Source: Moniliella sp. 'wahieum' (lineage: Eukaryota). Taken from it: a stretch of 64,000 nt of DNA. Where the stretch lies: assembly GCA_003971905.1 (NCBI GenBank), contig RSEE01000007.1:310001-374000 (forward strand), read 5' to 3'. Below the pieces are notes generated by a model. That model was not told the origin of the DNA and made no database searches. It was given only the letters and a program-made list of their open reading frames with translations. Position 1 is the first letter of the stretch; every line of letters begins with the position of its first letter. A program made the translations under genes and the position numbers. Positions 2,161-64,000 of this stretch are shown piece by piece.

Positions 2161-4217
2161 GAGGTGGTGGCGGGTGGTAGTGGCGGCGGGTGGTGGTGGC
2201 GGCGGGTGAGGGTGAAGGCAGAGGGAGCGAGGAGGTCAGGAGAGGGGATATATAAGTACGACTGCTCCTGGGTTTTTGGTCTGCAGGTGGGCAGCGACCC
2301 GCACCACTGATGCACCTTTATCCACAGCCGGCCACCCAGGCGACGGCGGCCGCCGGGTTCCCGTCGCCTGGGAGCTGCTGTTGAGACACCCCCGCACGGT
2401 GCCAGTGTGGCGATAGGGAGCAGCACGGGGCAGCTCGCGTGTGCGCCACCCGATGCGGCGGCAGCAGTGCTGCGTGGTGCTGCGAGGGAGAAAGCAGCAG
2501 TAGGATGCGGGAGGTGGGTAGGGGCATCATAATATATCAGCTGTCGCCTGCACTGCGCCAGCCGGCCGCAGCCAGTGGGGGCTGCATCTGCTGCCTGGCG
2601 TCTGTGTCTGTGGGGCTGCGGCAGCTTGGTGCCAGTGTGAGCATGAGCGAGCCTGCCCCCCTCCTACTTAGCCTAGCCCCCCCCCGCCTGTTACCTCCCG
2701 GGAGCGCGTCTGTGGGCCTTCTTTTCTTGCTTTCCTGACCGGGAGACAGGGTACCGTAGAACGAACCGAGCCAGTCATACTAGTCATAGCCAGCCTTCAC
2801 AGAAGAAGAAGCTTCCAGTTCCCGGAGGTGGTCTGTCCGGAGAACTACTATATTTGTGTAGAGCGAGGGAGGACGACACGGATTTCCGACATGAAAAGGA
2901 GACAAGAACAGCCGAGGCGAGGGAGACCCGAGTCGAGACTATAGGCCATGGGATATAGCAATCGTCCGTGGGGAGGAAGCAGGAACAGAGGATATGGTGC
3001 GAAGCAGAAGAACAGGGAATGAGCGAGATGCTCGGAACGAAGAATATTGGACATAGCTATAATCGAAATTTCTGGTTACAAGGTTGCCGCGGACCTTTTG
3101 CCGCGCCAGATTAAAAACGACACGTACCGTCTTTCTTGCCTAGGTGAACATGACCAAAAGCTGCACCTCAACGACGGCCATCAGTAAATTGCCTTGCACT
3201 CCACCCCGCGCGGAAACTCTTGGCTTACTGACTTCCATTATCCTGGCACGATATAGGCACGTGTGGGACGGGGAGGAAATGAAGAAGGGCATCAGCACCC
3301 TCAGTGCCACGGCCTGTGACCGAAAGAACTGGTCCGTCTCCAGCTGGAGGGATGGGCCAAATGGTTTTGGAGACAATGTGTCCAATTGGCCAACTCATGA
3401 AGTAAATAAGTCGCATGAGATGTGTTCCACAACTTATTTTGTGAGATGCGGTATCACGTCTGGATTGAGGTGTTGGAAGAGGATGCAGGAGAAAACATCG
3501 TGCAGTATGCGATAAATGGTAGGGGTTTATATTCATCAATAAGTCACTCGTCCGATCGTGTTCGCAATTCTTGTAGGATGGGAAGGCAAGGTTCGGACAT
3601 GAACAAAAAATGAGCTCAGATCATATAATGTGAGTCTCAAGTACTTTAAATGGAGTTGGTTCCTTGACCTTAGTGGCGCTTCCAAGTAACCCCCGCAAGA
3701 TGAACGGTTCGGTTTAGACGTAGCGTTTCCCCTGTCCCACAGCCTTAAGCTCTGTCAATGAAATGGACGCGATCTGGAGTATGGTGTGAGGGATAGTTCT
3801 AACATATACTAGTGGGAATGAAGGGAATTATTATACGCATCTTCTGGCCCATTTACTAGTATAGGTACTATGAAAGGTGGGGTCTTTGACCTTCTACTGC
3901 TCTCTATCCGGTCTTCTGACAAATATACGTCGAAAAGACGGTGATCGGCAGCATATGCAGTGGCGAACATCGGCGACAGTCGCCGGTCATGTGACAAAAT
4001 TTAAGCGGGAAAAAGGTCAGGAGAGAGATAGATGGCTAAGACATATTGCGTTCATCGAGACATCCCACAGACCCCCGCGTTAACCAAACACGCAGGCATG
4101 ACCCGGACATATACTCTTGCCACATGCGGGGCGCGGAAGGTCATTGGTTAGCCGAGGCCGGGTACCGAGTATCGACAGTTGCCTCAGTTCGTATACTCTG
4201 TGTTAAATTAAAAAGCT

Positions 4218-4260
4218 CCAAGCATCAAGCATCAAGCTTCAAGCTTCAAGCATCAAGCTA
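4218..4260. repeat. Tandem (T)CAAGCW heptamer repeat
   Basis: ccaagcatcaagcatcaagcttcaagcttcaagcatcaagc, upstream of the 4484 gene. Confidence 0.8.
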
Positions 4261-4389
4261 TAGGAACTTCCAGGAACTGTTACAGACACTGACCCTTTGC
4301 GACCGGCCGATGCACGGACCAACCGAGAGGGAAAACGCCGGTCTCGGCCGGAGTACGCTCAACATTCGCCACCATTAGCCAAGGAAAAC

Positions 4390-4404
4390 GTATATATATA
4401 TATA
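4390..4404 (+). promoter_or_regulatory. (TA)n TATA-like element
   Basis: TATATATATATATAT about 80-90 nt upstream of the ATG at 4484. Confidence 0.5.
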
Positions 4405-4483
4405 TCGCAAGGCTGGGGGCCCTCCCCACAACCCCATCGATTAGCCTCTTCGAACTACCACCCCCTTTCCCGCCCCCTGATCC

Positions 4484-4894
4484 ATGCTCTCCTCCATCCG
4501 CACCCCCATGTTCGCTCCCCTCGCCGTGCACGGTGGCTTGCGCGCCGTAGTCCGGCCTGCGATGCTCGCCCCCGCCATGCTTTCACCGCTTCGAGCGGTC
4601 CCAGTACGTCCACTCGAACAGCTCAAGGCGCTCCCCCCGTTCCGATGGTTGCATATGGCAACTGTGCTGATGCATATATACCGCGGGCAGATGTCGACTC
4701 TGCAAACGCATGCTCAAGCCGATGATCCCAATCCCCAGGAACCAACAGAGTCGGAGGCCGATCTACGTGGAGACCAAGCTGAGACCAACTTGTCACCAGA
4801 GGAGCTGGCGCAAGAGGAAGCCTTTGTTCGCAATGCAGAGGTGGGTCGTGATCAGACCGAGTCTGAGCAGGACTTGGATGCTGACAAGTCGTAA
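4484..4894 (+). CDS. Small protein (about 107 aa spliced) with a mitochondrial-presequence-like N-terminus and acidic C-terminus
   Basis: The N-terminus is Arg/Ala/Leu-rich and acid-free (MLSSIRTPMFAPLAVHGGLRAVVRP). Phase-0 intron GTACGT..GCTGAT..GCAG at 4604-4690. Acidic exon 2 (EPTESEADLRGDQ). Upstream TATA-like element. Confidence 0.65.
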   Translation: MLSSIRTPMFAPLAVHGGLRAVVRPAMLAPAMLSPLRAVPVRPLEQLKALPPFRWLHMATVLMHIYRGQMSTLQTHAQADDPNPQEPTESEADLRGDQAETNLSPEELAQEEAFVRNAEVGRDQTESEQDLDADKS

Positions 4895-5599
4895 CCCCCT
4901 TTTGTGTGCGTCCTCCTGCGCCGGAGCGGTACTTGGCGCGTTGTTCTTTCCCTCTCTCCATACTAGGCTTGAATTTGAGGACGCAGAGTTTTTGATGGGA
5001 CCGATGTATAGGCGTCTTCTGGATTTGTCCCTACGCGCTGTTGTATATCTCCTTGTAACCCAGAATCCTAGTAGCTCATTTATCCTTGCGTTTCATCGTC
5101 CACAGCATGTAATCCCCACCAGATTCTCCCGCTCTTCGCCAAACGCATCCGGGTCAATTCGCCCCAGCTTGTTATCCGCCTCCTCGATCATCGCCCTCCA
5201 TTTGTCTTGTTGGCTGCCGCGTAATTTATCTCTGTCGCGCAAATCCTACCAGCCGGTCTGTTTCCAACCCAAAGGTCACGTCTCTCATCCTCGATTCAAT
5301 GCATGCACCTGATCCATGTGATGCATCCCGACTCGACAACGTCAATCCCACGGGCCCCATTTGGAACCGGGGTTTACCGGGCGTTCACTGTCACCATCCT
5401 TCTCCCGTCCCACAGCGATCGAAGTGTGTGTGCATGCGATACTTGGATGGAAGTGGAGCAAGAGCAACTGGGGAAAAGAGAAACCGGGCGGGGAACGAGA
5501 ACAGGATTTATCAATGGTACATGAGCGCGGGAAGCGAGAAAAGATGACAGTAAAAAGGCACAACGTGAACAGGAGCCGAGCCATCGAGCGCAGTCAAGG

Positions 5600-8500
5600 T
5601 TACTTCTTCTCAGACGGGGAGGAGGTGGAAGCCGCAACCGATTGTTTCCGTCGACCCTTGTCGACAGTGGAGGTACGGTTGCGTTTGCGGATCACGTCCG
5701 ATTTGAGTGACAGCGGGCGAACCACGCCATGCAACTTGTAGAACAGCCCGCATGCGTTGCACAGCGGATGGCCCTCGGGATCGCGCCGCCACAAGGGCGT
5801 TTTGGTCGTGTGACAGTTGGTGCAGGTCATTTGGTCCGTTGCTTCCTCGCCCACTGCTTTGCCCTTGCGCTCGGCAAGCGGCTTGGAGCTGGAGGGGGCG
5901 CGACGGTGCTTGGGCACCGCCGCTACCGGAGCTGGCGCGGGCGACGGCGTGGTGACTCCCGTATTGGGCGTGCCGGGCTGGGACAACCCCGTGCTGCCGA
6001 GTAGGCCGCTGACTCCTTGTCTCTTCCCAACGGGTGCGTCGCGCCGAGCCCCGGACTGCCATGGCGCGAGCCCATCTCCTTGGGTTCGGCAAACAAGCTT
6101 CGTCCCCCGTTTCCGCGCCCCAGCGTCGGAGTAGTGTCCTTGGCCCGCGGGTGGTTTAGCAGCGAGGGGTCGACAGTCGCCATATCCGACGACGCAGGGT
6201 GCGAATGCGATGGCGTGGTTTCTGCCGAGGCCGGCTCGGACGAGAGGAGGGAAAGAAGCGTCGCAGAGGGATTGGCTTGCATCACCATACTCCTCAGACC
6301 TGTCAAATCCGGTACAGCGCTCGTCCCCTGTCCCAAAGGATCGGACGGCCAGAGCGACAGGAGCGAACCCGACCCTCCTGGGCCAGAAAGGGCCGTAGGG
6401 GTGGTGGCAGCCGTGTGGGCATCACTCGCCCCACTGCCGCTCGGACTCGCACGCGTACTACCACTGGTGGAGCCGGCGCTAAACCCACCAGTGGACGAGG
6501 CAGAGAGGGGCATAGAGGGAAGAGGACCCGACTGGGTCGAGCTGGGCATCCCAATCGGCTGACCGGCAGGCGTGTGGGAATGGGGTCGGCCAAATCGATT
6601 GAGACCGGCGGCAATACGTTGGTCGACGGTGGTCGGGAGATGACGCAGTGGCCTGGCAGCCTTGTTAATCCGCACCGCCGACGAGCCCATGTCCTCATCC
6701 AAGTCCATATCCATCGCCCCTCGGGAGCGCTTCCTCGTCGCCTGTGCGTGGGGTTCAGAGGAAGGCACGGGGAGGCCAGAAAGCGGGCCGTGTTTGCCCA
6801 ACGCGTAACTTTGGGCGCGCGTGTGGTGGCCTGTCCCAATAACAGGCGAGGCTACTGGGCTGGCTTGGCCTGACAGGGGTATGGGGGGCAGAGAGGCTTG
6901 TACAGGCGACGTAGCAGAGTATAGACTGTGGTCGAAACTCGTCTTGCGTACCAGACGAGGGAGGAAGTCCCAGTCTGGGTCATGGTTGATTGGTGCCTCG
7001 GCAAAGTCGTCCGGGTTGGCACCGGGCACACTCGCCAAGAGACGCGGGGGCGCACCGTACGCAAGCGCCTCTCGAGAGGCCGTGGATGCCTCGGGAGGGT
7101 GGAAGGAGGCAAATGGGGCCAGGTTTTCAAACATACTGAGATCCATCATCCCTATCCCTGTTGCGGAGGAGTGCCCATTCTCGTCCAAGTTTAGGAGACT
7201 CGTCGGCAGGTCAACAGCACGTTCCCAGGCCCATCTCCGTCGAGATGGCTCTGACCCGCTGTGGGTGTAGCCGGGGACATTGGAGAAGTTGCCTGGGTCC
7301 GCTGAGATCGATCTCCAGCTGTGGGAGACAAGAGACCAGCACGGTTGACCTCCAAGGCATCCTTGACCACCGCTCGACGGAATTCAGCTCGGATGCGCTC
7401 TTGTCGTTTTCGGCGCTCCCGTTCACCGTCGGAGGAATCGTCATCTCCATCCTCAATGCCAAACCGGGGATCGGGTGCCTTAAATCCTTCATCAAAGCCA
7501 GGGAATTGGCCAAAGGCCAGTGCAGTGGCCGCAGGAAGAGAGGCACTCATCATTTGGAGGTACCGTGATGGGTCGTCAGTTTCGTCGTCGTGGTCTTTAT
7601 CAAGATCAAGGAGCTGGGTTGGATCCTTGTCACCACTATCTAAACGGCGACGGGAACGAGAGCGTGCAAACCCGTCAGCCGCGCCAGCCCACCGGGTGGA
7701 GAGGGAGGCGATCGAGCGGGAGCGGGAGCGGATGGCGGATGTGAAGCCCAAGGGAGATGGGCCAGGGGGATGGAGCGTCTCCTGTGCGTTGGTGGAATGT
7801 GGACCGAGAGAAGGGGGTGCTGGGCTTGCTGGCTTGCTTGTCTCGTCATGCGAAGAGGGCGGAGCAGGATGAGCCGGTTGGGCGGGCTGGACCGGCGTCA
7901 TGAGCGAAGAAGCCGCGAGTGCATCGGGAGTAACGCCGCGTGATGAGCGGCGGCTGCGTCCGCGCGAGGGGAACGCGATGAGTTGGAAGCACGCGCCGCA
8001 GGCGTAAAGGGAGTCATGTGTGACGTGGACGGCGCGGACATGGGGGTGGCACCAGGCAAGTTGAAGGGGAAGCCTTCCATACCAAAGAGGGATGTCTGCG
8101 GCGTATCACGTTTACGCAAGTTAAGGTTCATCAGCCGCCACGTTAAATTCTACATGAACGCACGCAACCCGATTGCAACAGCAAATTCGTCAGCGCTTCC
8201 GTCCCTCGGTAATAGAGCAAAATGGGGGGGTGGGGGGAATTCGGTACACACCTCAATTCGCATGTTGTTGTCTGCCTCCAAAGCCTTGGCCTGGATCATT
8301 CGGTAGATTGCCTGGGGAAGCGCTACGTTTCCAGCCGCCATCGGGGACGTCAAGCCTGCAGTGGCGACCAAGTCGGCCGTCTCGCCTTGCTCAAGGATGC
8401 TGCGAAACGCGTACCAGTCGGGCTCTCCGGTTGTACGGGTCGCTCCGGCCAGCTTGGCAAGAGAAGTGAGCCAGGTGTACAGATCGGGGTCCTGCTCCTC

Positions 8501-10240: not shown

Positions 10241-10859
10241 CCGTGCCTTTGCGACGTTTGCAACCCCCACACGGGTCCACCCACCCTCACTAGCTCACTG
10301 CGCCGGCGGCAGTGTGTGGTAGGCGGACGTGCTGCGTACCGCGTACCGGCAACTAGCAACTCCTCCCGACTGTCTTGCGCCGCGTCGGTTGCAGCCATTG
10401 TACTTAGTAGGCAGTCTCGGTCGCACGCGAGAGCAACTCTGGGCGCTGGGTACTCTCAGTCTGTACTCAGACTCAGCACTGAGACGCAGTCGGAGCATGC
10501 TCAACGTTCCATGCACTCAACGCTCCCGACCTACTACTTGCTGCAGATGGCCTTTCGCACAGGCCCTTCACATGTCACACGGCAATCATTAATCATTCCC
10601 AAGACAATGTATAGCCCACATGCAGTTTCTATGCGGCCCAGGGAAGCGCAAGCTTTATTGTGGGCGTATTGCTTGTGCTTTTTGCCCCCCGGCGGCTTTG
10701 CTCAAACAAGATCAATTAAGCAAAAAGCAGTACAACAAGAAGAAATTATCGCGCAGATACTTTTTGGAAGGACAGACCAGTGGTCATGTACTAGGGGTGC
10801 GCTCAAACGCGAGGAAAGTGTACCATCATACGCAATCAGGGGGAGAGCCTGCAGGGCCA

Positions 10860-11580
10860 GGTGTGGTAGGAGCAGGCGGGCGGTAGGAGCAGGGGGGGCA
10901 TAGGGAGAGGGGTGGTAGGAGCAGGGTGGGCGGTAGGAGCAGGTTGGGCCGGAGGGACAGGGTGGGTGTTAGGGAGAGGGGTGGTAGGAACAGGGAGGGT
11001 GGTAGGAGCAGGCTGGGTGGTGGGAGCAGGTTGGGTGGTAGGTGCAGGGGGGGCGGAGGGGCAGGGAGGGTAGTAGGAGCAGGGAGAGTGGTAGGAGGAG
11101 GGAGAGTGGCATGAGCAGGGAGGGTGTTAGGGAGAGGGTGGTAGGGACAGGAGGGGTAGGAGCAGGGAGGGTAGCAGGGAGAGGAGTGGTAGGGAGAGGG
11201 TGGGCGGTAGGTGCGGGAGGTGCGGTAGGAGGAGGGAGGGCGGTAGGAGCAGGGAGGGTAGTAGGAGCAGGGAGAGTGGTAGGAGCAGGTTGGGCGGTAG
11301 GAGCAGGGAGGGCGGTAGGAGCAGGGAGGGCAGTAGGGAGGGGTGGCAGGAAGAGGGGTTAGGAGCAGGGGGCGACCCGAGTAGGGTGAGTGTTAGGGAG
11401 AGGGGTGGCAGGGAGAGGGGTGGCGGGTGCAGGAGGTGCGGTAGGTGCAGGAGGTGCGGTAGGTGCAGGAGGTGCGGTAGGTGCAGGAGGTGCGGTAGGT
11501 GCAGGAGGTGCGGCAGGCGCGGGAGATGCGGCAGGGACCGGAGGTGGGTAGTCCAGGTAGGAGCAGGGTTGGGAGGAAAG
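10860..11580. repeat. Degenerate purine-rich minisatellite with GGTAGGAGCAGG core, including near-perfect 18-bp units GGTGCAGGAGGTGCGGTA at about 11426-11515
   Basis: Seen directly. Reads as PAPTAP/PAPT repeats on the minus strand. Confidence 0.9.
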
Positions 11581-14500
11581 GGGACGCCCGGAAAAGGAAA
11601 GTGCCATGTGTCTCCGTTGGCGGGCGGGAAGGGCAAGAGGGCGCCGGGGCCGGGCGACGCGCAGCAGGAGAGGGACGGGTCAAGGCCGGTGTGTGAGCAG
11701 GTGGTGGGGTGCTCTTTTTCGCAGTTCGGCCACAGTTCTGACATGCTCATCTTCGACGCGGTCCAAGCTGCTTGGGGTAAGATGAGATCCGCATCGTCAA
11801 CCAGGTGCAGCTTGTCGCTGATCTTTGTCCATCCGCCCCGGTTGGTGCTCAGCATCTGGAAGGCGATCTCGACCCTGCCTACAATCTCGGACGGGGTCAG
11901 TTTGAACTTGTAGGCTCGAATCAGATGGTCGATGCGGACGCCAATCTTGCGACGGGCGTTTCAAATAACCTTCTTGGACACTGCTGCTTGCCTTGAGGCC
12001 ACGCATTGGCTTTCCATTTGGACCGCGGTACGTGCTTTGAGGTGGAAAAAGCTGGTCCCGCAAGCACAGGACTCCATCCATCCCATTGTTCCACCCTCCC
12101 ACACTTGGGAAATGGAACTCACTCGCTTACACAACGTGAGTACGCTAGGAAAAGGGGGCGGCGGCGCTGAGGGATCCCGAGTCGCGCGATCAGTCGCTTG
12201 AAGCAGAGCATCGCACTCGGCCGCAACGGTGTTGTGCGGCGCAGGTGGGAGGGAGGCACCGGCAGCAGCATCGGGTTCCCCGCGACGTTCGGAAGGTGGA
12301 GAAGACCCATTGGCGCCTCCACCGTTGGCGGCGGCAACCCCTGGGGCCGGAGTTGCATCGGGGACCGGAGCGGGATGAACACTTCCCTCTGTGGCAGGCC
12401 CAGGGGGAGCCGTGCGTCCAGCTAGCCCGGGCGAATCATGCGTCGTATGCGGAGGAGCGGTGGCGGGAAATTGTGGCGCACGGGGACGTACACGGGACGG
12501 TGGGCCATTGCCCGCCGCCAGTGGAACGCCGATATGGTCCGCGATGATGGTCAGAAGGCTCTTGAGGTCCTGTACTTCGGTTCGAAGGTGTTCAACCTGT
12601 GTCTCGACTAATGGTCTCGTGCGCACAGCCGATTCGTCTCCTGAGCAAGGCTCACAATTGACGAATGAAAATTGGGAAGCGACTTGCCCACCACTTTTGC
12701 TGTCTGCTTCGTCAGAGATGCGTTTTTTTTTCTCCTCAATCACCTTCTCCAACCCAGTCTCCATCGCGCCCAAGCGGTTATTGACCAGCCCGAAACCATG
12801 CTGCACAGTGCCGTGATCTGAGGCATCTCCCGCCCAAAGGAAGGATTCACCGGCACAGGCTGCTGCTCGACGTATATCTTGATTTCCTGAGACCACTTCT
12901 GATACTCCGGCGACTGAAAGACACGCAGCTTGAGGATATAGCGGGTGCATCTGGTGTCAGACCAAAAGGGAGAGTCTTGAAGGATGACTCGTCGAAACAT
13001 TCTTAGCAATTTGGCAACTCTTTCGCCATCATAAGATGGTCTCGCCTCGTGTTGACCTCAGTGCCTTGGTGAGTACGCTTCTTCCCTCTTTCGGCGCCAA
13101 GGGGTGGTTCCAACTCCTTGAGTGCCGCATCAAGTTTTTTCTCCTCGTCGTCCAAGTCAGGAAAGATTTGGTTGAGCAGAACATCAGGGGGTCGAGTTGG
13201 GCGCGGGAGGAAGTAGGCACCACCTTTGGGAGCCCATCCATTCAAGGCACGTACAAAGGGCATGGACATGTTGTCAAGGTGAGCAAGGAGGGCGAGACAT
13301 TCCAGTTGCCAGCCTGCGAATGGAATCCTCGGGTACCCCCAGCATATCGGCAATGCGAACGGCGCTCCAACGGAAAATGTCAGTTTTCCTTCCACTGTTG
13401 ATGCCGGCCACCGTCAGGTACCGCAACACCCGAGAGTAATAACCGTGGTCCGTCATAATTGATTTGCCAATCGGTCGCTTGGACTTGGCAGTAGTAGTGG
13501 CTGCAACGTCCTCGGCCCCTCATGCGGGCCATCCTCCGTGGCGTCCTCTGTGTCGTCGACGTCTTGCATGCCATCCTCGGGGGCCTCGTCCGCGCCTTCC
13601 ACCCGATCATCCTGTCCATCGACCTCTCCATCGTCCTCCATTGCATCCTCCACAACGTCCTCCACAGCGTCCTCCACAGCGTCCGTCACACCGTTCCCCT
13701 CCAGAACAATGGAGGGAGGCGTGCTCCTGCGTCGCCTGCGGATTCGTTGCCCGGGAAAACCGGGCAGGTGAGCCACGACTCGGGTTCGGTTAAGGGCAGG
13801 CAGATCCCATCGCCCCACCCTCTAGGCCGGCGCTCCCTTACGACTTGCAAGCGAAGGAAAAAATGGCGCGCCAAAGACGAGATGCAACATATGTTGGCAT
13901 CCTTGTGACGCATCGTACCCATCGCTCGCTTCGAACCCCCCGGGTAGCCCTTCCCTTCGGCAACATAACTTGCAGTGCCTCGGCTGGCTCAGTGGGCCCC
14001 TCGGGCATAGGAAGAGTGAGAGGCAGACAGTCCATGAGCAGAATCCCGCGCACGTGCTCGCCGCGAAGCAGACAGTAATGCGACAGGCAGGCCATCGCGT
14101 GGTCCCGAATGCCTGCCGGATACGAGCGCGTGTTGTCCAAGCAAGTGGCCAGAATCGTCTCTAGCTCCTTGAGCGAGTAGCCATCGTGGGAGGAACCTGG
14201 GACACACGTTAGCATCAACAGCGAACAAAAAATTGGAGCGAGAAAACAACCTACCATTTGGTCGGCCGCCAACGATTTCCTTTTGAGCCTTGCCGTCCGA
14301 TTTGCGCTCGGCCTTGAGAGCCATTTGGGTATGGGGACCTTGACGCGGGCTGGGGGGGAAGACATCGAGCCACGTGAACCCCTCCTTGAGATCAAATAAC
14401 CTGCCCTGGTACTTGTGGAAGTACGTCACAGCTGACTCGATAGAGAGCAGTGACGCAGGTCCGTAATGGACGTCTGTTTGGGTCCCGGCGCCCGACCGGA

Positions 14501-15092
14501 AGGGTTCGGGCTCTTGAAACCCACCATCGTCTTGCGCCTCGGGCCGAGGGGACTGGTTGGCCTGCGTTGCTCGCCGCTTGTTCGGCCCGTCCGTCCCGGG
14601 GGGAGCATCCCTCTTTGAAAATCCAGGGGGGAAGCTGCGCCTGCGCAAGCTGCCCTGAGGAAATGCGATTGTCAAAGCAGGTGCTGAGGTACTCCGTCAG
14701 GGCCCTGCCGTGCTTGGCCTGCGCTTGGAGAAACGTGGCGAGGTTGAGGTCTGTGGCCAGTGTCCTGCCGAGTAGCGTGTCAATGGGCCGACCACGAACC
14801 ACGGAAGGCAGAACTGGTCGGGGCACGAGGAGGAGACGCACCGTTGCTCGAACTGTATTTTGAACTGTACGGGATCGTCGGCATACGCAGACAGGGAGGG
14901 CAGCTTGTCTTCGTGGATGGCGAGTTGAAGATTAAACTCGATGTAGCCACGCACCTTGGAGCGGTACATGTCGATGGTGCTGGCACCAACGCCGTTGGCG
15001 CCTTCCTTATGCAGCCGGCGCACGCTCTCCTCGTGCCGCGCCTGGGTGCTGGCGGGGAGACCCGGCACACTGAAGGGGGAGCGGCGCGGCAT
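10860..15092 (-). mobile_element. Crypton-F-type tyrosine-recombinase gene (NDC10_II + GCR1_C); transposon or domesticated derivative, apparently catalytically altered
   Basis: Motifs in order: STIDMYRSKVRGYIEF; TLATDLNLATFLQ; SIESAVTYFHKYQ; GSSHDGYSLKEL; RDHAMACLSHYCLLRGEHVR; PEGPTEPAEALQVMLPKGRAT; GTMRHKDANICCISSLARHFFLR; GINSGRKTDIFRWSAVRIADMLGVPEDSIRRL; GAYFLPRPTRPPDVLLNQIFPDLD; RMFRRVILQDS; GCR1_C-like LCKRVSSISQVWE.GWNNG..RRKIGVRI. Introns at about 14766-14842 and 14197-14254. The 3' end is uncertain. Confidence 0.85.
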
Positions 15093-15849
15093 GGCGTCCG
15101 CGTTGGGCGGGGGGTCTGCGCCGGGGCCAGGAGCGGGCGGCGGGGGGGGATGGCATCGCTGGGCGCAGGCGGTGGCCAGGACCCTGGGAGGACACGGGCG
15201 CGCAGACGATGGCGTGGGGGGGTGTTCTGCTGGTCGCAGCAGTAGGGAGGGCGTTCTGAGTTCTGAGTGTCCGGTGGCCGGCGCCCATCCGGCCATTGTC
15301 CGATTGTCCGTCGCCGCGACCATCACGCGCGCCCGTCACGCGTCCCGCGTCCCGCACGCGGCTGTTTCCGTACTCAGACGGCCCATTTGGCCAGCACAGC
15401 AGCCGCCCAGTGCCCGCCGCCGAGTGCGCAAGCGCGACGGATGTGTCCGTCGCATACGCTTGGTTTCAAATTGCACGCCAGCGACGCGACGAGTTTGGAC
15501 CAACATTTTGTTTTGGGCGCATTTTGGGCAGCACTTCGGGCGGATGCAGTCCACACCAACGAAAACACATGGTCAGGATTGAATGGCGACGCTTGAGCAA
15601 AGGAAAGAGTCCGGTTGTGGCGCTGCCTTCCGCACACCATGCCACCACGCCGGCACGCGCCCGATCCTGCCTTCTATATGCACCATCTCTGTCTCTAAGG
15701 TCCCAGCTCTCATAAGCCACCGCACGATGAGCAGAAAGGGTAAACGAAGTCATGCATGGATGAATCGAAGGGGACTAGGTCGGCGGGAGCAGGCCAAGAA
15801 AGCATACAACGCTTCGGCAATCCAGATATAATGAAGGACCAAACCCATG

Positions 15850-23147: not shown

Positions 23148-25371
23148 ATGGTCCCCTCTCCCCCGTCCCTATCCCCGCCCCAGTCCTCCTCTCCCGCCTG
23201 CTGCGCAGCCCCTTCCCCCATCACGGCCCGCAGCGCCAAACGGGCCGCAACCCGCTAGGCTTTCGCGGGGACAGATCTACCCCAGGGTCATCTTCACTCC
23301 ATCCTTTCACCTCACCTCCACCGCCTGTGCCACCACCCCTACGACGCAAACGCCTGCCCAGTGAGCCATTGCTTCAGTCTCTCACACCCCTCTCCTCTGC
23401 ACCACCCACAACCGGACCGCGCATCCGTCTCGGCCAGCTCGGAGGCACATCCCTTGCAAGGTATGTATACACACCCCGCCCATTAGGTGTTTGATCGTTA
23501 CTAACTCCTCTGTAGTACCCCCTGCTTCTCGCCGCCGGCATTCGGGTCGGTTTTTGGCCCGCACCTTGTCTCAAACTCTCCGAGCCCCCCGCTTCCCTAC
23601 CCCCCGTGGGCCCAACCGTAGTGGACCCCTCTTCAGCGACATTCCACCTCGGGAGACTATCGAACAGCCAACGCCTGTGCAGGATACTGGTATTGCTCCC
23701 AAAGCGGATGGGAGGCGGATGCCCCCTGAATGACGCTTCCTCACCATGGGGCCATGTGTTCCGAGCCTGGGCAGCAACTTGACAGCCATCCCGTTAACCT
23801 CGCTCTCCACCCCGTCTGAATCGCCTTCGCGTCCGAGTTCCCTCAAGGACCGGGACCCAGAGAACCCCTTATGCATCGATTCGCTCATTGCTCGGCTGCA
23901 GGCCGCGGTGGCGGGTGGAGAGGAGGTGCCGCTTCAGCCTCAACCCCGAAGAGGAAGTCAGGGTCTGGTCCTTCGCACGCCCACTACCAGCGAACTGAGC
24001 ATGTTCCTGACACGGAAAGAGCCCCCTGCTCCTACCAAGTTGTCGGGTCCAACCAGTACACCACTGTTGGACAAGGTGGAAGAGGAGGACGATGCCAGGT
24101 CGTTAACCCATTGGAAACACCACACCCCTGACACACGCTTACCTGCGCCCCCTCCTCCCGACCCGCCTGCTCCCGTACCGGAGGGTGCGCAGGTCATTCC
24201 CTTTGTGGCCAAACCACCGGGGGAAAAGCGGGGAATAGGGGAGTACACGTTGATCAAGGAGATTGGTCGTGGAGCCTATGGTGTTGTTCAACTAGCTCGC
24301 CTAAGTGATCCCTTACGCGGGCAACCCCCTCTGCCCAAGGCGCGGTGGGGAGACCGTGGTGATCAAGTACATTGTCAAGAGCCGTATTCTCGCTGACTGC
24401 TGGCGGCGCCATCGTACGCTTGGCACCATCCCCACCGAGATCCATGTGATGGATCAGCTGCGACGACTGCCTTATCCTCCGCCTCGCTCCTGGCCACCCT
24501 GGAGCCCTGAGATGCTCCTGCCGAGCGTTTTAGCGAAATCCTCAGTCCTGCCGAGAGTTTGTCCCGTGCCCAAGGGGTGCAAGTGGGCGAGCCATTGTAC
24601 CCCCAACTTGACCCACATGCTCGATTTCTTCGAGGACGTCGAGTACTACTACTTGGTCATGCGTCGGTTCGGGGAAGGGCAGGATGTGTTTGACTTTATC
24701 GAATCCTCCGCCGGTGGGTTGGGGTTGCGGGAGGTGCGGTGCATTGCGGGGCAGCTGGCCGCAGCGCTTGTTTTTCTGCATGAGCATGGCATGGTTCACC
24801 GCGACATTAAGGACGAAAACGTGATTCTGGACGGTGCGCCGCTCCATGCGCAGCTGATCGACTTTGGTTCGGCCGCGCACCGCAGTCGGTCGCTGCGCAA
24901 GCGCTTCGACACCTTCTCGGGCACGCTGGAGTATGCTGCGGCGGAGATTTGCGCGGAGAAAGCTACGATGGCCCGGCCCAAGATATATGGGCTTGGGGGG
25001 TGGTGATGTATGTGCTGCTGTGTGGCGAATGTCCATTTTGGAACGGGGAGGAGGCACTGGGTGCGCTCCAGGATCCCACTCGCGCCCGGCTCAGACGCTA
25101 CGCAAGCGGGCGGGTCTGGGGGATATCGGCCATGGGCAGGGGGACGGGCGAGATGGGCAAGCTGATGGCGGAGGCACCGTGGCCGACGCGATTGAGCTCA
25201 TCCATCTCTGTCTCGCAGTCGACCCAGCGGCGCGGCCGAGCGCGCGGCAGGTGTGCACCCACCGCTTCTTTACCGGCCACCCTGGCTGGACCGGTGCCCA
25301 AGGGCTGGTGCCGGCTGGATCCCCACTGGGGCGAGCAATGGCTCGGCGTGCTGCCCGACACAGCCATCTAA
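23148..25371 (+). CDS. Ser/Thr protein kinase, PAS-kinase (Psk/Ppk6)-like catalytic domain
   Basis: EIGRGAYG, VVIKYIVKSRILADCWRRHRTLGTIPTEIHVM, HRDIKDENVILD, LIDFGSAA, FDTFSGTLEYAAAEI, QDIWAWGV. Intron 23461-23516 (GTATGT..TACTAAC..TAG). Start and end approximate. Confidence 0.88.
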
Positions 25372-27024: not shown

Positions 27025-28686
<1,662 letters not shown>

Positions 28687-46911: not shown

Positions 46912-48329
46912 ATGTCCGCTCACCCACCTACCAATGCGGCTCCACCACAGCCGTCACTGAGCGCCTGGCCGACTCGAGTGCCAAGCGCGCCCGCATATTG
47001 TTCTCTGCGTCCGTGTCGGCGGGGCCTTCGGCCGAAGAAGGTGCCGTGCGAGCCCAGCTGGGCAGCAAAATTGGTTCCGAGTGGGCGTGGGCGCAAACAC
47101 TCCCTCCCGCTCTGTTGGCCCAGCAGGCCGCCGCAGGACGCGGCCCCGAGTCCAACAACAAGAAGCGCAAGGCGTCCTCCTCGGATAATACTTCTGCCCT
47201 TTCGCAGCCCACTTCGGATGCGTTGATCGCACCCTCCGCCCCACCTCCCTCGGACGCACTTGTTGCCTTCCGCAGCGAAGAGAGGTTGGCTAGCAGCAGT
47301 GGCACGCGCTTGTCCACTGCCCTGGTGCGCAAAAAGGAGCTCGAGGCGCGACACGATCAGCCTGCCTTCCACCCCGACTGGAGGCTGATGCGCGTCCTCT
47401 CTGGCCACAACGGCTGGGTACGTGCGGTGGCGGTGGAACCCAACAACCAATGGTTTGCTACGGGCGCAGGTGACCAAATGATCAAAGTGTGTACCTGCCT
47501 CTCCTCCCTCTGAACGACCATACTGACATGCTGAACCAGATTTGGGACTTGGCCTCGGGCGAGCTCAAATTGAGTCTGACAGGCCACAAGGCGACGGTAC
47601 GTGGATTGGCCATCAGCTCGCGGCATCCTTATCTCTTTTCAGCTGGAGAGGACAAGGAGGTGAAGTGCTGGGATTGGAGACGAACAAGGTAATTCGCAAG
47701 TACACGGGCCATCGCAGTGGGATCTACTGTCTTTCTCTCCATCCGACGCTGGACGTCCTTGTAAGTGGTGGCCGAGACAGTGTGGCGCGGGTATGGGACA
47801 TGCGCACCCGTTCCGAATCCATGTACTTCGTGGGCACACCCATGCGGTGACAAGTACCGTGTGTCAAGAGGCGGATCCGCAAGTGATCACTGGTTGGTGG
47901 ACCAGACAGTGCGCCTTTGGGACTTGGCGGCGGGCAAGACGTTCAAGACATTGACGCAACACCACAAGTCGGTTCGAGCCTTGGCATTACACCCTACCAG
48001 TTCTCCTTTGCTTCCGGGTCCGCCATGGGAAGCAACATCAGACATGGCAATGTCCCGAGGGAACTTCCTTAACTCTGTGGCTCATGGCGCCATTGTCAAC
48101 AACTTGCGTGCAATGCCGATGGCGTTTTGTTTGCCGGAGGCGACAATGGGCAGCTCAAGTTTTACGATTATGATACGGGGACTCCCTTTCAAGCGTTGAT
48201 GATGTTCCGCAACCTGGCTCGCTCGATGCCGAGGCTGGTGTCTTTTGTTCCACGTTTGACCAATCAGGCACGCGGCTCATCACCGGCGGGGCAGACAAGA
48301 CCATCAAGGTGTATCGTGAGGTCGCTTAA
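46912..48329 (+). CDS. PRP46: Pre-mRNA splicing factor Prp46/PLRG1 (WD40)
   Basis: [104 protein letters not shown]. Intron at about 47487-47539. Confidence 0.95.
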
Positions 48330-48690
48330 CTGGTTTTTTCTCCCATTCTGTGTAAGAAACAGTAGAAAGACAGACTGTTGGGCCCGCTGTCCTGCACGTA
48401 GGCCAAGGCGCCCTATCACCCCTTTGTCCCTTTTTTGACCTCCGATGCCTCCACCTGCATGCTGCTGTTGGAAGCCCTGTCTTCGATTGGATCGCTCTAC
48501 ATCTGCAGAAAACCTCCACCCCACTCCCTTGGATTCCTCTGGACTCCCGCAGACTAGCAACAAGTATTGAGGGGAAAGGAGGGAGACGTTGAGTGAGCCA
48601 AAAGATAAAGACATGCAGGAAAACGAGGTGGGAATCTAGAGGGGTTGTCGCTTCCTACTGCGACCAACTGGGATGGCAGGTGAGGGGGGT

Positions 48691-50104
48691 CTATTCCTCC
48701 TGAGGCTCGGCCTCGTATTCACCTTCCTCCTCCAAGTACTCGTCCTCATCGTCAATGCCAGCCTCAGCGTATGTTGGTACTCAGACACGAGGTCTTGCAG
48801 GTTCGACTCGGCTTCCGTAAACTCGAGCTCATCCATGCCCTCGGAGGTGTACCAGTGGAGGAAGGCCTTGCGGCGGAACATGGCGGAGAACTGCTCGGAC
48901 ACGCGCTTAAACAAGTCTTGAATCGCCGTCGAGTTTCCAATGAATGTGACTGCCATCTTCATTCCGTGAGGAGCAATGTCGCAGTGCGCGGTCTGAACAT
49001 TGTTGGGAATCCACTCGACAAAGTAGGAGGCATTCTTGGCTTGAGTCGCCTGCATCTGGTCCTCCACCTCCTTCATCGAGACAGCACCGCGGAAGTAGGC
49101 AGCGACAGTCAGGTACCGGCCGTGACGCGGATCGGCAGCAGCCATCATGTTCTTGCTCTCAAACATTTGCTGCGTCAGCTCGGGCACGGTGACGGCACGG
49201 TACTGTTGGCTGCCGCGTGCGGTAAGCGGGGCAAAGCCGACCATAAAGAAATGGAGACGAGGGAAGGGGACCATGTTGACAGCGAGCTTGCGCAGGTCCG
49301 AGTTGAGCTGCCCAGGGAAACGGAGACAGGTAGTGATACCCGACATGACAAGAGAAACGAGGTGGTTCAGGTCATCGTATCCGGGCGCCTTGAGCTTGAG
49401 GGTGCGGAAGCAAATGTCGTACAAGGCTTCATTGTCAATGCAGAACGACTCGTCTGCGTTCTCAACGAGCTGATGGATCGAGAGGGTAGCGTTGTATGGC
49501 TCGACAACCGTGTCCGACACCTTGGGCGAAGGAAGGACGGAGAAGGTGGCCATCATACGGTCCGGGAACTCCTCCCGGATTTTGGAGATGAGGAGGGTAC
49601 CCATTCCGGCACCGGTACCACCACCCAGGGAGTGGGTGATCTGGAAGCCCTGCAACATGTCGCACCCTTCCGCCTCTTTGCACCACGTCAAGCACCGAGT
49701 CGACAAGCTCAGCTCCCTCCGTGTAATGGCCCTTGGCCCAGTTGTTGCCTGCACCCGACTGACCAAAGACAAAGTTGTCCGGGCGGAACAGGCCGCCCAT
49801 CGAGCCGGACCGGATGGAGTCCATGGTGCCAGGTTCGAGGTCGACGAGCACGGCACGGGGGACAAAGCGAGAATTGCTTGCCTCGTTGCTGGAGAGATGG
49901 GAAGCGGTGAGCAGGGGACGCCGAGGGAAGCGGAGGGGCGGGGGGGGGCGTACTAGTAAACATCGATGCGCTCCAGCTGAAGGTCCGAGTTGCCGACGTA
50001 GGCACCGGTACCATCGATGCCGTGCTCATCCGAGAGGACCTCCAGAACTTGGTGCCAATCTGGTTGCCGCACTGGCCGGTCTGCAGGTGAACGATCTCGC
50101 GCAT
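48691..50104 (-). CDS. TUB2: Beta-tubulin
   Basis: [49 protein letters not shown], acidic tail [13 protein letters not shown]. One intron at about 49890-49953. Confidence 0.98.
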
Positions 50105-61412: not shown

Positions 61413-64000
61413 TCACAGCTCCACCATCTGCACTGGCTCGTCGTCCGAATCGGCGTCCGAGGCAGGATCCTTGGCTTGGGTTTCGAGCCACGCGGGGGAG
61501 AGGGAGAGGATGGTAGACCGGAGTTCGCGCCGCTTATCGCGCACCTCGTCGGCGTGCCAAAACGGATCCTGTTCATCGCACCGGCGCAGCGCCCGCAGCG
61601 CCCCATTGGGGTCCATGACAAACCGATGGAAAAAATGAATAACATAGATCCCGCAGTCCCACCAGTTGGGTTGCTGCGGGATGATGGCATCCAAGTACTT
61701 GCAGTCCACCGGCAGCGGTGTCACACCGGCCTTGTGTTCCGCTTCGAGCCGAAGCCACGACGATAGGTCCCGATTCACTTTGACGTGCCCGTTGCGGTTG
61801 CGCAGCGAATCAAACGTGATCACCACGGGCAACTCGTCCTGGTCCAACGCATCGTGCGCCTTGCCTTGCCGAATCAACAATGCCTTGCTCGGCCCGTCTT
61901 TGAGTTTTTCTTTCTCCTTCTCCTCTCCACGGGCACGGGCGCGGCACGTTCTTGCCCTGGGCCGCGTCGGCCAGCAGCGCCACAGGCGACACGGACCGGC
62001 GGGGGGACCGGTGCGACGACGGCAGCTCGTCCGTTTCCTGCCGGGCGCGCGACTGCATCGCCTGCCGATGCGCAGCACCAGGTACGATTACCTTGCCTCC
62101 GCCGCTCAGCGCGCGGGGTGTCGATCCGGCTGGATCTTCGTCGTTGTCCTGCGGCGGAGGGACAAATACATCTTTGCCCCCCTCTTCCAGCGTGGTTGCA
62201 CGCGGTGAACAGGACGGAGCTGCCTCGGTAAGCGTGGGCAACGTCTCGGATGTCTGGGCCAGGGGGCTCGCATGCTCCTGGTCCGGGGCACGAGGCGGCG
62301 GGGACGAGGTGCCAACGGGAGGCGTTGGGGTGGGAGGGGTGGTGGATCGGAGCAGGGCTCAGTTGGGTTGGTAGCGTGTTGGGGCAAGGAGGAAGAAGAG
62401 GGAGACTCTCGTGTGGCGGCAACGTGGCGCAGGATGCGTTCGGGATGGAGGATGATGGCGAGGTACCAATGCAGATGTTCGTTGATTGGCACGACAATGT
62501 ACCGTTTTTCAAATGCCAGCGGGCCCTTGGTCCACTTGCGTACCTTTTCGTACCCTTGCAACCTGTCGTTTCTCTTGGCCGAAGTCAGCTGGGAATAGAA
62601 AAAGGGGGACAGGACTAGCAGGTCTTTCGCCTCCGCCCGCTTGGGCAACGGCAAGGACGCCTCGACCTGAGCATGAAGGTACTTGAGCGCAAAGTCAATG
62701 ATGGTATCGTTGAGCCATTCGCCTTCGTCCAACTTCAACAAGTCGGACTTTTTCAGCGTCACACTCCCCCGGCCGCCCTGGGGCGGGAAGCGGAGGATGG
62801 GCACGTCTTGTTCGGGGAAGTGTGCGTGCCTTGCGCACCATCTGGATCGCACGCTCCACCTCATCGTCCGATGAGTCGTCAACCACCGTGCGCATCCCCT
62901 TGGAGGCCCTCGGGGGTTGGACCTTTCTGTAGGAGGAGGAAGCGGCCGAGGCGGGCGACGTGCCATAGAAGGAAGAGGCGGTACTGCCAAGCGTGAGTTG
63001 CGTCTGGGTCGAGCGCGGCTGGCCAAAGGCGGTGATGACCTTGGCACCGCGGGCCATGTCATCCAGCTGGCGGCGCAGCACACTGGAATCTTTGGCCAGC
63101 ATGAATTTGGGCGGGGAGATGGCACGTTGGTCCAGTCATGCAATGTGGCTATGAGCACGTCCCATTCATTGCCGGCGCTGGAGGCAAAGTGGAGCGCAAG
63201 GTCGAGAGAGGGTGTTGCGGCGGGTCTCGGAAGGCGCAGGTCGAGCTTGGGGAGGTAGCGAGGTAAGGCCTGGACACCACTCGCCTTGTTGCCGCCTTGG
63301 TTGGACTGCGAGCTTAAAGTGAATAGCAAAGTACTTCTGACTGTCTGAGAAGCAAAGGGAACAAACGTGGGGTCAGCTGCGACGCGTATATAGCGGAGCA
63401 GGGGGAGCGAGCACGCACGATTTCGATGGCTAGCACGTCCATGGGCGGATGATCCAGCCATCTTCTTTGGCCAGCGAAAGGGGGATGAGGGTGAGGTGAT
63501 GCGGGTGGCAGATCATACGTCCGGTCCTGCGCTTTTGGGCCTTCCAGACCAGGACGCGGGGGATGGTGATGCCAGTGAGAGGCAGAGCGAGCGGGAGGGG
63601 TGTGAGGAGGAGCGGATGGGGGTGCGTGTGGGGGGGGCGAGCGGGTTTCTTGGCGGCGGGCGGCGAGGGTGGGGGGGAGAGGTGATGTTTTGCGGGCGCA
63701 GAGGGAGCCGGACGGCGGCTGGGGCGAGGACCAAGGTGGTCGCGGGGCGATCGTCGTCTTCGTCTTCGCTGGAGGGGAACTTGATTGTCTTTCTGATGAG
63801 CGCGAGCGGCGGTGGGTCCGCACTGGCGTCTGCACTGGCGTCTGCACTGGCATCGGCGAAGGCACCGGTGCTGGTGTCGGCGCTGGTGTCGGCGCGGGCC
63901 GCAGGTGGAGGCTCGTCGTCGGAGAGGGGGATGGGGTGGCGGGAGCGGTAGCGGGGGCGGACGCGGGAGGGGGTGGGGGGCGCGGGCGGGAGGGGAGGGT
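61413..64000 (-). CDS. ULP2: Ulp2/SENP6-like SUMO protease (peptidase C48), 5' end outside the window
   Basis: LDEGEWLNDTIIDFALKYL, FFYSQL, VRKWTK, IVVPINEHLHWYLAII (His), ITFDSL (Asp), QQPNWWDCGIYV (Gln/Cys). The catalytic domain is split by a long insert. Confidence 0.92.

Follow-up and report, generated by a model that had tools for sequence, protein, structure and literature searches.

A Crypton-F-like gene with an altered recombinase active site in Moniliella sp. 'wahieum', a candidate for retention as a non-catalytic protein

In this work, we have used homology searches, alignments and a simulation of neutral decay to decipher the nature of a Crypton-type gene in a 64,000-nucleotide stretch of the genome of Moniliella sp. 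'wahieum' (assembly GCA_003971905.1, contig RSEE01000007.1, positions 310,001 to 374,000; hereafter the window). This gene extends along the minus strand from an ATG at 15090-15092 down to about 11790, and has beta-tubulin, NPL4, PGM, UBC, a mitochondrial carrier and a kinase as housekeeping neighbours. A first-pass annotation of the window had already described a Crypton-derived gene among housekeeping genes; the family matches given below bear out the Crypton type, and the neighbours are real. Judged by its sequence, the gene is descended from a Crypton-F transposon, and it stands as a single locus in the window, where neither hidden Markov models (HMMs) nor a repeat search found a second Crypton-like copy or a repeat of the locus. 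Domestication of Crypton recombinases has occurred repeatedly, giving Ndc10 and Gcr1 in yeasts and, in animals, the DUF3504 genes, with ZMYM among them. We propose, tentatively, that the Moniliella gene may encode a Crypton-F-derived protein that was kept after its catalytic site was lost.

The relatives of the gene were collected from proteins and metagenomes. With HMMER, an 82-aa piece of exon 2 gave seven matches at E<=1e-3 among 1.84 billion representative proteins, four of them Crypton-like fragments (P0001, P0002, P0003 and P0006) with 43-51% identity; P0004, P0005 and P0007 were dropped as unrelated repeat proteins without a Crypton motif. A profile made from the four fragments led to one full-length protein, P0008, bearing the Pfam domains NDC10_II (PF16787) and GCR1_C (PF12550), and P0008 led to 20 CryptonF proteins, four of which are labelled Phytophthora in their source records. 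Four loci came from a scan of metagenomes, and three of them (L001, L002 and L003) encode intact elements with the motifs THIFRGS or KTHAARGS, RRAGRW, and YYLTTLP or CYLSQLP; L001 reads DDKTNQ where the others read GKTNQ.

An HMM built from the 11 of the 20 CryptonF proteins that reach 520 aa (oomycete-type proteins, among P0008-P0026) matched 4 of the 1466 six-frame pieces of the window at E<1e-6, all of them in 12743-14425 on the minus strand, and a second HMM of 14 sequences, these 11 plus L001-L003, was run against the same 1466 pieces. Five collinear matches in three frames (Table 1), a tblastn comparison with P0008 and a frameshift-tolerant alignment that had L001c as its sole reference indicate together that the tyrosine-recombinase core is homologous to CryptonF. 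This core is the only part with statistical support, the N-terminal domain being matched by eye. It shares with CryptonF transposons (Kojima & Jurka 2011, PMC3212892; L001-L003, P0008-P0026) a collinear series of motifs: LLRGE, the hairpin region G-x-...-MRHKD, KT-x-IFR, IRRAG-x-W, FLPR..PP..L..IFP and LLR..RRV.LQDS. The gene scores much lower on the family HMM, with 26-43 bits per piece compared with 117 bits for the same region in metagenomic fungal relatives. In Pfam terms, NDC10_II gave collinear matches of 20.3, 15.3 and 13.6 bits (profile positions 85-119, 208-267 and 277-317), below the gathering cut-off of 26.3 bits, which no single piece can reach with the domain split over several frames; the values of 20.3 and 13.6 came from nine raw open reading frame (ORF) pieces, and that of 15.3 from a further piece, 13 pieces having been run overall. 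Since active Crypton proteins fall under NDC10_II as well (it is present in P0008-P0026), a match to it means 'Crypton-type' and not 'Ndc10'. In the ESM Atlas the exon-2 piece falls beside DUF3504 and DUF3435 clusters, a lead only.

Is the recombinase still equipped for catalysis? The full catalytic set, R-K-HxxR-(W)-Y, is not found: both Arg residues and the Trp are kept, the His is replaced by Asp, the Tyr position reads Thr or His, and the Lys is ambiguous. The first-pass annotation had listed both Arg as retained and Lys, His and Tyr as all replaced; alignment to intact Cryptons upholds the two Arg and the loss of the His, agrees on the absence of a Tyr as assembled, and does not bear out the replacement of the Lys. 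There is no doubt about the Asp in place of the His: it is a clean substitution, away from any indel, and L001 has identical flanks around its THIFR; at the same position the CGlo, PI and PS elements read KTH, by eye, in the supplement of PMC3212892. The conserved AGRW motif that follows (IRRAGRWDMS in L001) was compared by eye with these three elements in that supplement, and its Arg is Asn in the window gene.

The Lys motif, whose claimed loss was that GKTN reads GRAT, carries a frame break itself. HMM positions 137-214 and 211-274, which lie in two different frames, abut there at 13955-13960, too close for an intron to fit. At the break are found a run of six G (13936-13941) and AAGGG (13948-13957), a 5-nt unit duplicated perfectly in tandem. 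In frame c%3=2 the sequence is EGKGYPGGSKRAMGTMRHKD, which retains the Lys, and in frame c%3=1 it is KGRATRG; a break placed upstream, or taken to be the 5-nt duplication, gives EGK-GYPGG, and one in the G6 run gives KGRATRG. The three placements thus give K, K or R, and the residue cannot be called.

As for the nucleophile, two frame breaks lie between IRR (ending at 13313) and PFVRALNGW (starting at 13260), and the best path goes through a third frame and reads AGNWNVSPSLLTLTTCP, matching AGRWDMSSMTQYYLTTLP. This better-scoring path has Thr at the Tyr position, in place of the His that the first-pass annotation had read in AHLDNM; in neither frame is there a Tyr in the sequence as assembled. 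The residue stands beside a frame break that must fall in 13261-13292 (about 32 nt), and a 1-nt assembly deletion exactly in the codon could hide a Tyr, so that its loss is not certain. We have therefore weighed whether the gene could belong to a still-active Crypton, its losses being assembly artefacts (a deletion hiding the Tyr codon and a substitution error at the His codon). If 1 nt had been deleted exactly between 13281 and 13280, this would account for the frame change and leave space for a Tyr codon; the Lys is present in two of the three readings, and the assembly is error-prone. Against this, the Tyr is rescued by a break at just one of the roughly 32 positions open to it, the Asp codon is free of nearby indels, and several other conserved residues are changed; we regard an active element as very improbable.

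Table 1. Features of the Crypton-type gene and profile matches, in window coordinates
Feature	Positions	Strand	E-value	Details
Crypton-F-derived gene	11790..15092	-		five collinear HMM matches in three frames; tblastn vs P0008; frameshift-tolerant alignment to L001c
Intron 1	14197..14254	-		58 nt, phase 1, GTAGGT...GCTAAC...CAG; joins ...GRPN-G to SSHDGY; read directly from sequence
Candidate intron 2	13018..13076	-		59 nt, GTACTC...AG, phase 1; joins ...GAERGKK to LAKLLRMFRRVILQDS
Arg-I codon CGC	14063..14065	-		in SHYCLLRGE, kept; invariant column R46 in alignment A1
Catalytic-Lys motif with frame break	13936..13963	-		AAG 13950-13952 in frame c%3=2; AGG 13949-13951 in frame c%3=1
Acidic (AVED)n-like insert	13524..13686	-		inside core, open in frame c%3=0; 12-nt tandem repeat; GC1/2/3 0.91/0.32/0.70
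GAC (Asp) at His of HxxR	13379..13381	-		RKTDIFR vs L001 THIFR, family KtHinR; identical neighbours
Arg-II codon CGT of HxxR	13370..13372	-		kept, in KTDIFR
AGNWNVS	13293..13313	-		frame c%3=2, counterpart of AGRW motif; Trp kept (TGG 13302-13304), Arg to Asn; entered via 1-nt gap at 13313
Nucleophile-Tyr position	13278..13281	-		ACC (Thr, 13278-13280) in better-scoring frame; CAC (His, 13279-13281) in the first-pass frame
GCR1_C-like remnant	11790..12140	-		LTLCKRVSSISQVWE ... ARRKIGVRIDHLI; by-eye resemblance to L001 and L002 C-termini; not significant
HMM match, profile 137-214	piece 13841-14425	-	1.6e-12	
HMM match, profile 211-274	piece 13689-13988	-	2.3e-9	
HMM match, profile 281-325	piece 13277-13519	-	0.017	
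HMM match, profile 340-389	piece 13006-13413	-	2.3e-9	
HMM match, profile 405-472	piece 12743-13057	-	7.6e-10	

The gene appears to be interrupted by two introns, and spliceosomal introns are a trait of the CryptonF transposons of fungi and oomycetes too. Intron 1 is clean and host-like and accounts exactly for the change from frame c%3=2 to frame c%3=1. The second is plausible: HMM positions 389 to 405 span a gap of the right spacing, and the candidate is without a clear branch-point motif. The intact GT-AG introns described earlier are confirmed for the first and plausible for the second. The other frame changes leave no room for an intron, as at the Lys motif, and to read the gene through them takes 8-10 frame corrections over 976 codons (2.93 kb); the corrected path contains no stop codon, and its G+C content at third codon positions (GC3, 0.65) exceeds that at second positions (GC2, 0.51), like in host genes. 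Between the Lys hairpin and HxxR there is an acidic, (A/V)ED-like insert that is missing from all the relatives fetched. Either it is translated, which would require two further frame breaks, or it is contained in one of six possible GT-AG introns of 181-283 nt, as enumerated for the change from c%3=2 to c%3=1 across it, though its coding periodicity in frame c%3=0 is strong.

At the other extremity, the C-terminal tail resembles GCR1_C by eye, and the reading meets an in-frame TGA at 11961-11963 unless it goes via frame c%3=1 (SKWKAN). The C-terminal end is uncertain; frame c%3=2 is open down to 11127, through an adjoining tandem array. This array, G-rich and located directly downstream of the gene at 10841-11553, has 18-nt units and also periods of 36, 54 and 69 nt, and its minus-strand frames encode Pro/Thr/Ala-rich hexapeptide repeats; it may be translated, belong to the element or be a minisatellite.

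What do the frame breaks mean? The first-pass annotation had stated that indels affect this consensus, and the essential neighbours of the gene confirm it. Beta-tubulin, whose 1.34-kb coding sequence was traced in full, has three breaks without an intron-sized gap (near 50041, 49677 and 48772; 2.2 per kb) and aligns otherwise gap-free over 303 residues to solved tubulins. At least two breaks were found in NPL4 (54715 and 55259) and in PGM (28409 and 27438-27536), one in the kinase (24950-24997) and at least one in a WD40 gene (47674-47686). These changes are 1- or 2-nt indels, for example TGG[G]AGG (tubulin) and ACC[C]GG (PGM), and they suggest that each kb of coding sequence in the assembly has about 2 indel errors. 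The two directions of break, '-1' and '+1/-2', also occur in similar proportions, 6:3 in the Crypton-derived gene versus 4:3 in the neighbours. Because essential neighbours carry breaks of the same kind at similar density, those of the Crypton-derived gene are probably assembly errors, and they are therefore uninformative on decay. For this reason we dropped two arguments: that frame breaks prove a pseudogene, as NPL4, PGM, the kinase and beta-tubulin show frame changes without gaps, and that the gene has an excess of breaks (about 3 versus about 1 per kb), once the full trace of beta-tubulin was available. In this assembly, frameshifts are thus unusable for calling pseudogenes, and residues beside a frame break cannot be called.

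A dead, decaying Crypton-F copy, in which at least some of the breaks would be real lesions, the catalytic changes neutral damage and nothing selected, has to be weighed at this point, and we hold it to be quite possible, short of our favoured explanation. Transposon copies are the common case, and such a copy would fit the 8-10 breaks, the possible TGA in the tail and a 5-nt duplication sitting exactly at the Lys motif. It would also fit the changes in other conserved motifs (GRW to GNW, RGS to RWS, LPRE lost, LAGF to LNGW), as well as undetectable GCR1_C and N-terminal domains and protein searches that found no orthologue. Against it stand the similar breaks in essential genes, the intact intron 1 and codon periodicity, and the number of stops. 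In a simulation of neutral decay (400 runs per divergence level), the mean number of stops was 0.8 at 1%, 2.5 at 3% and 7.7 at 10% divergence, so decay sufficient to change two of six catalytic residues should leave several stops, compared with the 0-2 observed. A run with no more than one stop that also had two or more of the six residues changed had a joint probability that peaked at about 0.015; if both of the stops bypassed by our path were real, the figure would be about 0.03, by our own rough estimate made outside the simulation. Perfect 7-bp tandem duplications, of which the window has 33, are absent from the gene body (1.7-3.4 expected); two of them lie just upstream of the ATG, at 15253-15268 and 15339-15355. 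The absence of stops, the intact intron 1, GC3 above GC2 and the lack of 7-bp duplications favour a frame that was kept open after the loss of catalysis. Once frame breaks of the type seen in the essential neighbours are allowed for, a stop-free path together with catalytic losses is therefore better explained by retention of a non-catalytic protein than by plain neutral decay.

An open frame with lost catalytic residues would also suit a recent copy of a defective master, from a transposon lineage that was already non-catalytic. The gene could then be a non-autonomous Crypton mobilized in trans by an active relative, or a regulator that the element encodes, and its insertion would be recent enough for the ORF to be still open. 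The group is mobile, as shown by the intact metagenomic relatives: L001 is an inverted pair (62-1276 on the plus strand and 2317-5666 on the minus strand) and L002 a head-to-tail tandem (1-2122 and 3556-4420). Opposed to this are the single copy in the window and the results of sequence-index look-ups with the locus, the exon-2 piece and the piece 13006-13413, which found no look-alike stretch, for the two pieces in particular. The locus is moreover far removed from all the relatives that were identified, its best exon reaching 51% identity at most, and we consider this origin improbable.

Our current hypothesis, held with slightly less than even confidence, is that the gene encodes a retained, non-catalytic Crypton-F-derived protein. 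The core could then no longer cut DNA, with Asp for the His of HxxR and no nucleophile Tyr seen; the reading frame would have been maintained after catalysis was lost; and the transposon-derived protein would have been kept for a non-catalytic job, using the recombinase fold to bind DNA or chromatin and leaving it uncut, a role that has been supposed for the DUF3504 proteins and for domain II of Ndc10. What we infer here is that the ORF is under selection, that the protein binds DNA and that it has any function in the host. The domestication as a non-catalytic factor put forward by the first-pass annotation thus gains from the Crypton-F origin, the loss of the His, the lack of a visible Tyr and the stop-free path of 976 codons, and loses from the searches for an orthologue and for GCR1_C.

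Several points weigh against this hypothesis. Among fungi, the majority of Crypton-like sequences are copies of transposons. The stop-free path is partly of our own choosing, with segments at 14614-14808 and 11966-12118 that avoid the stops at 14697-14699 and 11961-11963, both of them based on homology seen by eye, and in the second of which GC3 (0.49) is below GC2. The Lys and Tyr calls depend on where the assembly indels are placed, the AAGGG duplication at the Lys motif may be a genuine mutation and not an error of the consensus, and long homopolymers are commoner in this gene than in its neighbours, which makes the comparison of error rates a rough one. At least two of the four Crypton-like fragments (P0002 and P0003) retain GKTNQ. 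The complete Crypton-F architecture that had been described stands for the recombinase core; the N-terminal domain is not statistically detectable, and GCR1_C matched none of the 13 pieces at E<=1 or E<=5, the frame-corrected C-terminal tail, joined in 40 ways, reaching -1.3 bits on the family HMM, which is not significant. The HMMER check that had been suggested for NDC10_II and GCR1_C thus gave sub-threshold matches to the former and none to the latter. Finally, no orthologue appeared among the 1.84 billion representatives searched with the exon-2 piece, and a word-indexed search of longer proteins with the piece 13006-13413 gave no match among 1611 candidates.

How does the gene compare with known systems? 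It differs from CryptonF transposons in the Asp of HxxR, in the absence of a visible Tyr, in Asn for the Arg of GRW, in GCR1_C being undetectable and in being present as one copy in the window. It derives from CryptonF, as does Cbf2/Ndc10, the CBF3 kinetochore subunit of the Saccharomycetaceae, whose recombinase-like core has lost the catalytic site (PMC3212892); no piece of the window gene reaches the NDC10_II cut-off, and neither a kinetochore function nor orthology is implied. With the yeast transcription factors Gcr1, Msn1, Hot1 and Cdg1 it would share the proposed event, the keeping of a Crypton protein as a non-catalytic DNA-binding factor. According to PMC3212892, GCR1_C is the sole domain common to Cryptons and all known CryptonF-derived yeast genes; these four factors all have it, whereas the window gene has its recombinase core best kept and GCR1_C not detected, a difference that also counts against retention. 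The animal DUF3504 genes (ZMYM2-4, QRICH1, KCTD1 and WOC) offer the parallel of a recombinase-derived domain kept after the loss of His and Tyr, presumably for binding DNA or protein (PMC3212892 and PMC13465315), although they derive from CryptonA and not from group F, are conserved across vertebrates and are expressed. The label 'Ndc10/Gcr1-like' is thus best taken as an analogy and not as membership.

Three further observations concern the rest of the window. An Ulp1/C48 peptidase gene lies on the minus strand at 61416-63512, its catalytic domain being split into two halves with about 600 nt between them. A C48 peptidase is known from some CryptonF elements of oomycetes (PMC3212892), but this gene, 46 kb from the Crypton-derived one, looks like a host gene. 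A 408-codon ORF at 48684-49910 on the plus strand is antisense to beta-tubulin; long open frames are common on the non-coding strands of this GC-rich genome, and therefore ORF length alone is weak coding evidence. The mitochondrial carrier piece had no PDB match at E<=1e-10.

Fungal Crypton domestications have been little explored so far, according to a 2026 paper (PMC13465315), and we found no paper on Crypton domestication in Basidiomycota, judging by titles and the starts of abstracts in a coverage that leaves out most subscription journals. A wider proposal, which we consider unlikely, is that at least three divergent, disabled Crypton-derived genes in a smut-lineage basidiomycete would represent an independent, multi-gene domestication of the CryptonF fold outside Saccharomycotina, in which the recombinase core, and not GCR1_C, would be the retained module, as a chromatin, centromere or transcription factor. 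If verified, expressed and conserved, the basidiomycete dead-recombinase gene described here would be a case of independent domestication and, if so, could point to a new DNA-binding regulator.

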